64,000 nt of DNA from an uncultured Alphaproteobacteria bacterium (lineage in GTDB: Bacteria > Pseudomonadota > Alphaproteobacteria > SHNJ01), in assembly GCA_964647725.1 (NCBI GenBank), contig CAZYJI010000005.1, positions 47,190 through 111,189 on the forward strand, in the 5' to 3' direction. The notes below the pieces were generated by a model. That model was not told the DNA's origin. It did not search any database and saw nothing but the letters and a program-made list of their open reading frames with translations. Both the position numbers and the translations under genes were made by a program. Below are positions 46,998 through 48,897 of the stretch, piece after piece; position 1 is the stretch's first letter; each line of letters opens with the position of its first letter.

Positions 46998-48897
46998 ATG
47001 GCACGCGTTATCGGGATCGATTTAGGCACCACCAATTCTTGCGTTGCGGTCATGGAAGGCCAAACGCCAAAAGTTATCATCAACGCCGAAGGCGCGAACA
47101 CAACCCCATCCCAAGTCGCATTTTTGGAAAGCGGCGAACGTTTGGTTGGCCAATCCGCGAAACGCCAATCGGTGACCAATCCCGACAATACTTTTTATGC
47201 CGTCAAACGTTTGATCGGCCGCAAATACGACGATCCGATTGTCAAAAAAGATTTATCGATGGTGCCGTATAAAATTATCAAAGGCGATAATGGCGACGCA
47301 TGGGTCGAATCTAGGGGGAAAAAATACGCGCCGGAACAAGTATCCGCATTCATCCTGCAAAAAATGAAAGAAACCGCGGAAAGTTATTTGGGCGAAAAAG
47401 TCACCGAAGCGGTCATCACCGTTCCCGCTTATTTTAACGACGCGCAACGCCAAGCGACGCGCGATGCTGGCAAAATCGCCGGATTGGAAGTTTTGCGTAT
47501 CATCAACGAACCCACCGCCGCCGCGCTGGCCTATGGTTTAGAGAAAAAAGCAACCGGCACAATCGCCGTATACGATTTGGGCGGCGGTACGTTCGACGTA
47601 TCGATTCTTGAAATCGGCGATGGCGTGTTCGAAGTTAAATCGACCAATGGCGATACGTTTCTGGGCGGTGAAGATTTCGACAAACGCATTATCGATTTCC
47701 TGGCCGATCAATTCAAAAAAGATCAAACCGTCGATCTGCGCAACGACAAATTGGCGTTGCAAAATCGAATTATCGTCTTCGACCGAAACCGAAATCAATT
47801 TACCGTACATCACCGCGGATGCGTCTGGCCCAAAACACTTGACGTTGAAATTGACCCGCGCGAAATTGGAATCATTGGTCGAAGATTTGATCGAATCGAC
47901 CATGGAACCATGCCGCAAAGCGTTGAAAGACGCCGGCGTTTCGCCATCCGATATTGACGAAGTAATCCTGGTCGGCGGTATGACCCGCATGCCGCGCGTT
48001 GTGGAAGCGGTTAAAAAACTGTTCGGCAAAGAACCGCATCGCGGCGTCAACCCGGACGAAGTCGTCGCCGTCGGTGCCGCCATTCAGGCCGCCGTATTGA
48101 AAGGCGACGTCAAAGACGTATTGTTGCTAGATGTTACGCCATTATCGCTCGGCATTGAAACGCTGGGCGGCGTGTTCACGAGATTGATTGAACGCAACAC
48201 CACCATCCCAACCAAAAAATCACAAGTGTTCTCGACAGCCGAAGATAATCAAACCGCAGTTACGATCCGCGTGTTTCAGGGCGAGCGGGAAATGGCGGCG
48301 GATAATAAACTGCTTGGCCAATTTGATTTGATGGGAATCCCGCCATCTCCGCGCGGCGTGCCGCAAATCGAAGTCACGTTCGATATCGACGCCAACGGCA
48401 TCGTCAGCGTGTCGGCGAAAGACAAGGCCACCGGCAAAGAACAACAAATCCGTATCCAGGCGACTGGCGGTTTGTCGGATGCCGATGTGAAGAAAATGGT
48501 CGACGACGCCAAGGCCCACGAAGCGGACGATAAAAAACGCCGCGCCTTGGCCGAAGCCCGCAACCAATCCGAAGCCTTGATAAACAGCTCGGAAAAATCG
48601 CTGAAAGATTTTGGCGACAAAGTTTCCGCGGACGAAAAACGCGCGATCGAAGACGCGATTGCCGATTTGCGGTCGGTCAAAGACGGCGAAGATGTCACCG
48701 CGATCCAGCAGCGCGCCGAAAAACTCGCGCAAGCATCGATGAAACTGGGCGAAGCCATGTACAAAGCCCAGCAAGACGCAGGCGCGGCAACCGGTGATGG
48801 TGCTGCGGATGCGGGCGGCGGCGATGCAACCAAGCCCGATGGCGCCGAAAAAGTCGTCGACGCGGAATTCTCGGAAGTTAAAGAAGACAAGCAATAA
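46998..48897 (+). CDS. dnaK: molecular chaperone DnaK, interrupted by a frameshift/short deletion near 47770 in this sequence
   Basis: The N-terminal 319 aa (46998-47957 frame) and C-terminal 429 aa (47608-48897 frame) both match Hsp70. The conserved 'RLKEAAEKAK' linker segment is missing at the junction. Confidence 0.85.

Follow-up and report, generated by a model that had tools for sequence, protein, structure and literature searches.

Genes divided between two reading frames have been described from several quite different settings. Programmed frameshift genes, such as prfB (+1) and dnaX (-1), encode a single protein in two overlapping frames; housekeeping genes interrupted by small deletions are found among the pseudogenes of reductive evolution, for example in recently host-restricted bacteria; and in draft genomes and MAGs, frameshifted essential genes are encountered in which a universally conserved gene is split in one record and intact in sister assemblies. 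For dnaK itself, laboratory null and depletion mutants have been characterised, including an E. coli deletion and Caulobacter DnaKJ depletion with its sigma-32 suppressors (PMC5760092). The alphaproteobacterium Caulobacter crescentus depends strictly on DnaK for growth (PMC5760092), which makes a fixed dnaK null allele improbable from the outset. In most long-read assemblies made with a single assembler, errors tens to hundreds of bp in size have also been documented (PMC8442456).

The locus compared here with these systems is the dnaK gene of an uncultured alphaproteobacterium, read within a stretch of 64,000 nt (hereafter the window), where the gene lies in two out-of-frame pieces. Two readings of the split remain, an assembly or consensus error and a very young null allele.

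Organisation of the dnaK locus

The features of the locus are listed below, where L001 and L010 denote loci on a same-strain NCBI contig and L016 a locus from a closely related strain.

43410..44489, + strand: hrcA, intact, 359 aa (Pfam HrcA, E = 2.3e-58)
44476..45075, + strand: grpE, intact, 199 aa (Pfam GrpE, E = 4e-51; identical protein on 12 contigs)
46909..46937, + strand: sigma-32 (RpoH)-type promoter-like site, CTTGAA-N16-CTTATAT (consensus match)
46986..46991, + strand: Shine-Dalgarno sequence AAGGAG, 6 nt ahead of the dnaK ATG (read from the sequence)
46998..47762, + strand: dnaK 5' part, codons 1-255, Met1 to Gln255 (Pfam HSP70 1-254, E = 6.5e-129; identical to L001/L010)
47759..47761, + strand: deletion junction, CA microhomology at 47760-47761 (alignment with L001; same 29 nt in L016)
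47763..47957, + strand: out-of-frame tail of the 5' piece, 64 nonsense codons and TGA (+2 reading of normal dnaK)
47761..48897, + strand: dnaK 3' part, Lys265 to stop, frame B (Pfam HSP70 262-599, E = 5.9e-137; 100% identical to L010)
48918..50045, + strand: dnaJ, intact, 375 aa, 20 nt downstream of dnaK (Pfam DnaJ, DnaJ_CXXCXGXG, DnaJ_C)

The first of the two frames (frame A, 46998..47957, 319 aa) encodes a genuine Hsp70 through Gln255 (codon 47760-47762), these 255 residues belonging to the nucleotide-binding domain, beyond which 64 nonsense residues lead to a TGA at 47955-47957. In frame B, +1 relative to frame A, dnaK resumes at Lys265 (47761) and proceeds to a normal C-terminus, with the stop codon at 48895-48897. 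Positions 1-254 of the Pfam HSP70 profile are covered by the first piece and 262-599 by the second, in different frames; a single-frame, whole-length Hsp70/DnaK (PF00012) match is absent from the dnaK of the window and present in the 642-aa allele of L001. An initial sequence-only reading of this DNA had described two overlapping out-of-frame ORFs incapable of yielding a full-length DnaK as written, and both points are confirmed. The 319-aa product of the 5' piece, including its out-of-frame tail, corresponds to protein P0127 of the public collection searched. For the 3' piece, the earliest in-frame ATG past the junction is at 47902, giving a 331-aa product (P0126), and no Shine-Dalgarno sequence was found upstream of this ATG. 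Because of how Hsp70 proteins are built, we infer that neither piece could act as an Hsp70 chaperone.

The operon context is that of a conventional heat-shock locus, with dnaK followed by dnaJ, a candidate heat-shock promoter, and hrcA-grpE nearby, in the same order in all related loci. The sequence-only reading had regarded grpE and dnaJ as intact, in agreement with their Pfam domains, and had placed an RpoH-type promoter beside dnaK; the predicted site (46909-46937) precedes the dnaK ATG by 61 nt and is the sole match in 64 kb to CTTG-N16-18-CYTATNT, the consensus of alphaproteobacterial heat-shock (sigma-32) promoters, with 0.35 matches expected by chance per window. No sign of decay was seen in the promoter, the ribosome-binding site, either dnaK half, or dnaJ.

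The surrounding DNA is dense and well preserved: the window is ~92% coding, about 70 genes have full-length domain matches, and no other split or broken gene was seen in the 64 kb. Intact housekeeping genes include parAB, rsmG, mnmG, mnmE, rho, maf, coaE, secB, gshB, rph, dapB, nth, and the pst-pho cluster; neither tRNA genes nor Rfam families (gathering score) were detected in window positions 1-64000. In its gene content (parB-parA-rsmG-mnmG-mnmE-rho ... hrcA-grpE-dnaKJ ... pst-pho), the window is reminiscent of the region near the origin in alphaproteobacterial chromosomes.

Between grpE and dnaK lie three small ORFs (45490-46822, - strand), conserved in all related strains and without a Pfam match, two of which are adjacent, 138 aa each, and resemble membrane proteins, the third (159 aa) being response-regulator receiver-like by eye, likewise without a Pfam match. 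Within one of them (45903-46319, - strand), the window has five T on the + strand at 46006-46010, as does GCA_013565695.1 (L105), whereas eight Logan/JGI contigs from sister strains have six; the difference shifts the last ~31 codons of the small predicted membrane protein, giving 138 aa here and 134 aa elsewhere, and in the T5 version the 138-aa ORF overlaps the next gene. To judge from these contigs, the T5/T6 difference at 46010 looks like a true strain polymorphism. The homopolymer was considered as a second window-specific error and rejected, the window allele being common to GCA_013565695.1.

The 29-nt deletion

Alignment with the otherwise identical contig carrying L001 places the loss between 47759 and 47760, where exactly 29 nt, CAGCGTTTGAAAGAAGCATCGGAAAAAGC, are missing from the window; the figure of roughly 29 nt given by the sequence-only reading was accurate. 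The sequence of the window spanning the deletion is GCGTTG/CAAAATCG, with end points ambiguous by 2 nt owing to a CA/CA microhomology. The call is a direct sequence comparison, not a statistical pattern, and chance is not an issue. A hairpin or repeat was considered as a cause of the deletion and rejected, as the DNA of the intact junction does not fold better than shuffled sequences (z = -0.77) and only the CA microhomology is present.

Codons R256-A264 (RLKEASEKA) are lost together with 2 nt, and the frame changes because nine codons plus two bases are removed. Loss of the conserved Hsp70 segment Q-RLKEAAEKAK-IELS, which we take to lie in subdomain IIB of the nucleotide-binding domain, is evident in the dnaK of the window, where R256-A264 are absent; the sequence-only reading had recognised the missing segment, its exact peptide, RLKEAAEKAK, being a close guess that differs from the residues actually lost. 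Each of the positions R256-A264 is invariant or almost invariant across 119 aligned DnaK homologues, none of which is gapped there.

Sister assemblies and relatives

Intact counterparts of the locus have been identified in assemblies of the same strain, among them two other NCBI assemblies. The NCBI contig JACCDT011715646.1 of GCA_013565695.1 (12.8 kb; loci L001 and L010), reached through the DnaJ protein of the window, an identical DnaJ being encoded on L001, carries an uninterrupted 642-aa DnaK, and equals window positions 46332-58897 except for 29 extra bases and two mismatches near its own end (at distances of 17 and 26 nt). Together, four contigs of GCA_013565695.1 (L002, L105, L010, and L004) span window positions 31890-64000 (32 kb), with 8 internal SNPs, 2 contig-end mismatches, and a single indel, the 29 nt; across these 32 kb there are no homopolymer differences. 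No substitutions occur within 10 kb of the lesion, and its flanks are clean for >10 kb on each side.

Outside this assembly, too, the junction is unbroken. All 29 nt are present in L016 (SRR33541897), from a 97.4%-identical strain, and 27 of the 29 in L018, L019, and L022 (SRR28520272/73/78), 100% identical Logan contigs that stop at that point; the DnaK of an alphaproteobacterial MAG, TAH35286.1 (95% identity, the closest named relative), is full length. One continuous dnaK frame was found in every relative examined, and the split arrangement in none. According to collection metadata, with which the gene-position index disagrees, the intact DnaK protein (P0002) is on two NCBI contigs, the longer of 470,955 bp. 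By the same collection metadata, the 470,955-bp contig also bears the exact window versions of nine other tested proteins, two of which differ from GCA_013565695.1. For the split products P0126 and P0127, a single NCBI contig of 132,429 bp is recorded (again from collection metadata, with the gene-position index in disagreement); since both occur in the public collection, the deletion is a feature of a public record and not one brought in with the window. Judged from the assemblies compared, the 29-nt deletion is private to this one record.

Broader searches bear less directly on the allele. DnaK identity to the closest GTDB species representatives is only 74-79%, and exact scans allowing 0-29 nt at the junction returned neither allele from GTDB species genomes and JGI metagenome contigs, a result that carries no information on frequency; the absence from JGI metagenome contigs of a 24-mer specific to the deletion junction likewise says nothing on frequency. 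A protein search with the 64-aa frameshift tail alone gave no match and is void, since tail-bearing P0127 was itself missed; P0127 was returned by the full-length query.

That the three Logan contigs ending inside the 29-nt segment reflect local heterogeneity at the deletion was considered and rejected on the basis of their end positions. L018, L019, and L022 end at L001:1455 (1425+30) and L014 starts at L001:1575 (1605-30), L001 positions 1425 and 1605 being third codon positions inside dnaK, and the contig ends are shared across different runs. Such breaks fit k=31 graph bubbles arising where co-occurring strains differ by synonymous SNPs; a break due to the deletion allele would have fallen at 1430.

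Among other alphaproteobacteria, DnaK N-terminal fragments of 300-360 aa on long MAG contigs (P0157, P0158, P0173, P0177, P0189, P0190, P0197, P0198, P0207, P0270, and P0274) break within ~20 codons of this position and continue in the same alternative frame; each retains at least part of RLKEAAEKA, which marks them as 1-nt frameshifts. These fragments were probably retrieved for their query-like out-of-frame tails, and no hotspot can be claimed. Two further DnaK-like ENA proteins, P0001 (939 aa) and P0156 (342 aa), have unusually high scores; P0156 contains an internal duplication around NGDAW...LAYGLDK and probably stems from chimeric assembly in another data set.

Origin of the deletion

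The deletion is most readily explained, with a probability of about 55%, as an artefact of consensus building or assembly in this single record. The organism would have a normal heat-shock dnaK-dnaJ operon encoding a 642-aa DnaK, and the error would have arisen when the consensus of this contig was built, the deletion being absent from the living population. Presumably the artefact came about by a route such as the survival of a medium-sized indel through the later polishing that removed the small errors of a contig built from long reads, or the choice by the assembler of a non-representative read path. Several observations argue for such an error: an otherwise identical large contig (470,955 bp, from collection metadata) bears an intact dnaK; the junction is intact wherever else it is visible (GCA_013565695.1, four Logan assemblies, and the 95%-identical MAG); the 29 nt are the only indel relative to GCA_013565695.1 across window positions 31890-64000; the residues removed, R256-A264, are near-invariant and ungapped in the 119 homologues; and public MAG protein sets often contain frameshifted DnaK fragments. 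The contigs concerned are of 132-471 kb, versus 1-37 kb for the short-read contigs of this strain-mixed organism, and are hard to obtain from short reads, which for this organism give contigs that break every 1-37 kb because of strain mixtures. Against an artefact, the sequence around the deletion is otherwise error-free, unlike that of a poorly polished long-read contig, and the broken DnaKs otherwise seen in public data result from 1-nt frameshifts rather than from losses of 29 nt. To our knowledge, no de Bruijn-graph assembler can produce a 29-nt deletion over 2 nt of microhomology unless the reads contain it; had only short reads gone into the record, the deletion would have to be present in the sequenced molecules. 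The sequence-only reading had proposed that reads with roughly 29 additional nt at this position, encoding RLKEAAEKAK, would indicate an assembly error; the extra 29 nt are carried by independent assemblies of the same strain.

A genuine, very recent loss-of-function dnaK allele, common enough in the sampled population to be assembled, is in our view a serious possibility at somewhat less than even odds. The 29-bp deletion may have formed via slippage or end-joining across the CA microhomology, and its carriers, without functional DnaK, would survive only in mild conditions, with sigma-32-lowering suppressors, or briefly as a declining subclone. Error-free flanks of >10 kb on each side are as expected of a read-supported variant, a 2-nt microhomology is typical of spontaneous deletion, a graph assembler cannot invent a 29-nt deletion over 2 nt of homology, and the population is polymorphic, including the genuine 1-nt frameshifting polymorphism at 46010 common to two assemblies. 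However, the allele is found in one record only and is absent from all other same-strain assemblies and from JGI metagenome contigs; the intact allele is present on a large contig that is otherwise identical; the lack of decay in the promoter, ribosome-binding site, gene halves, and dnaJ would make it extremely young if real; and DnaK is essential in the best-studied alphaproteobacterium, Caulobacter (PMC5760092). That the deletion is the dominant allele of a living natural population, with an alphaproteobacterium growing in its environment without DnaK, appears distinctly unlikely; such a population would presumably be aided by changes lowering sigma-32 activity, as in the laboratory Caulobacter suppressors, and would represent natural dnaK loss caught at its very start. 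Real pseudogenisation, as raised by the sequence-only reading, fails if long-standing, there being no substitutions within 10 kb, no trace of the allele elsewhere, and no other broken gene. An established pseudogene in a reducing genome, with another Hsp70 paralogue elsewhere taking over the chaperone function, would account for the broken reading frame and nothing further, and is highly improbable in a window that is ~92% coding, with about 70 genes having full-length domain matches and no other split gene, where each half of dnaK matches the intact allele at 100% identity, further disabling changes are lacking, and the lesion is common to no relative examined. Programmed frameshifting, also raised by the sequence-only reading, does not stand either, as the lesion is absent in near-identical strains and nine near-invariant residues would still be missing. 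A +1 shift anywhere in the overlap of frames A and B (47608-47957) would fuse them, and a +1 or -2 ribosomal frameshift, or bypass, could in principle give a full-length DnaK minus 9-10 residues; the junction, GCG TTG CAA AAT CGA, is nevertheless without a prfB-type CUU UGA C or an X XXY YYZ heptamer (by eye), the frame-A stop context, UAU UGA C, is far downstream of the junction, the DNA fold near the site is unremarkable (z = -0.77), near-identical strains simply carry the 29 nt, so that the split is not conserved, and the fused product would miss nine near-invariant residues, leaving recoding with next to no credibility.

Use of the record

The phenomenon is ordinary and is not a biological novelty; it has little biological weight and serves mainly as a warning for annotation and record quality. 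For annotation, completeness scoring, and dnaK phylogeny, dnaK should be treated as frameshifted in this record only, the proper DnaK sequence for use being the 642-aa version in sister assemblies of the same strain. Should the deletion be at high frequency in the source reads, the case would gain modest interest as a naturally dnaK-null lineage among bacteria for which DnaK is regarded as essential.

Comparison with known systems

The closest likeness is to the frameshifted essential genes of draft genomes and MAGs, with which the locus shares a universally conserved gene split in one record and intact in sister assemblies. In those cases a 1-nt frameshift leaves at least part of RLKEAAEKA in place, whereas here there is a clean 29-nt loss and the surrounding 32 kb are without small indel errors. 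Laboratory dnaK null and depletion mutants likewise abolish DnaK, and the allele of the window as written would leave dnaJ, grpE, and the heat-shock promoter in place while DnaK is lost; in contrast to those mutants, it is known from sequence alone, and rpoH lies outside the window. The two overlapping frames for one protein recall prfB and dnaX, from which the dnaK of the window differs in having no slippery or stimulatory motif by eye, an unconserved arrangement, and coding sequence that is partly missing. As in reductive-evolution pseudogenes, a housekeeping gene is interrupted by a small deletion; unlike in those pseudogenes, the lesion is single, is shared with no relative, has no accumulated substitutions around it, and stands in a dense, otherwise intact 64 kb.
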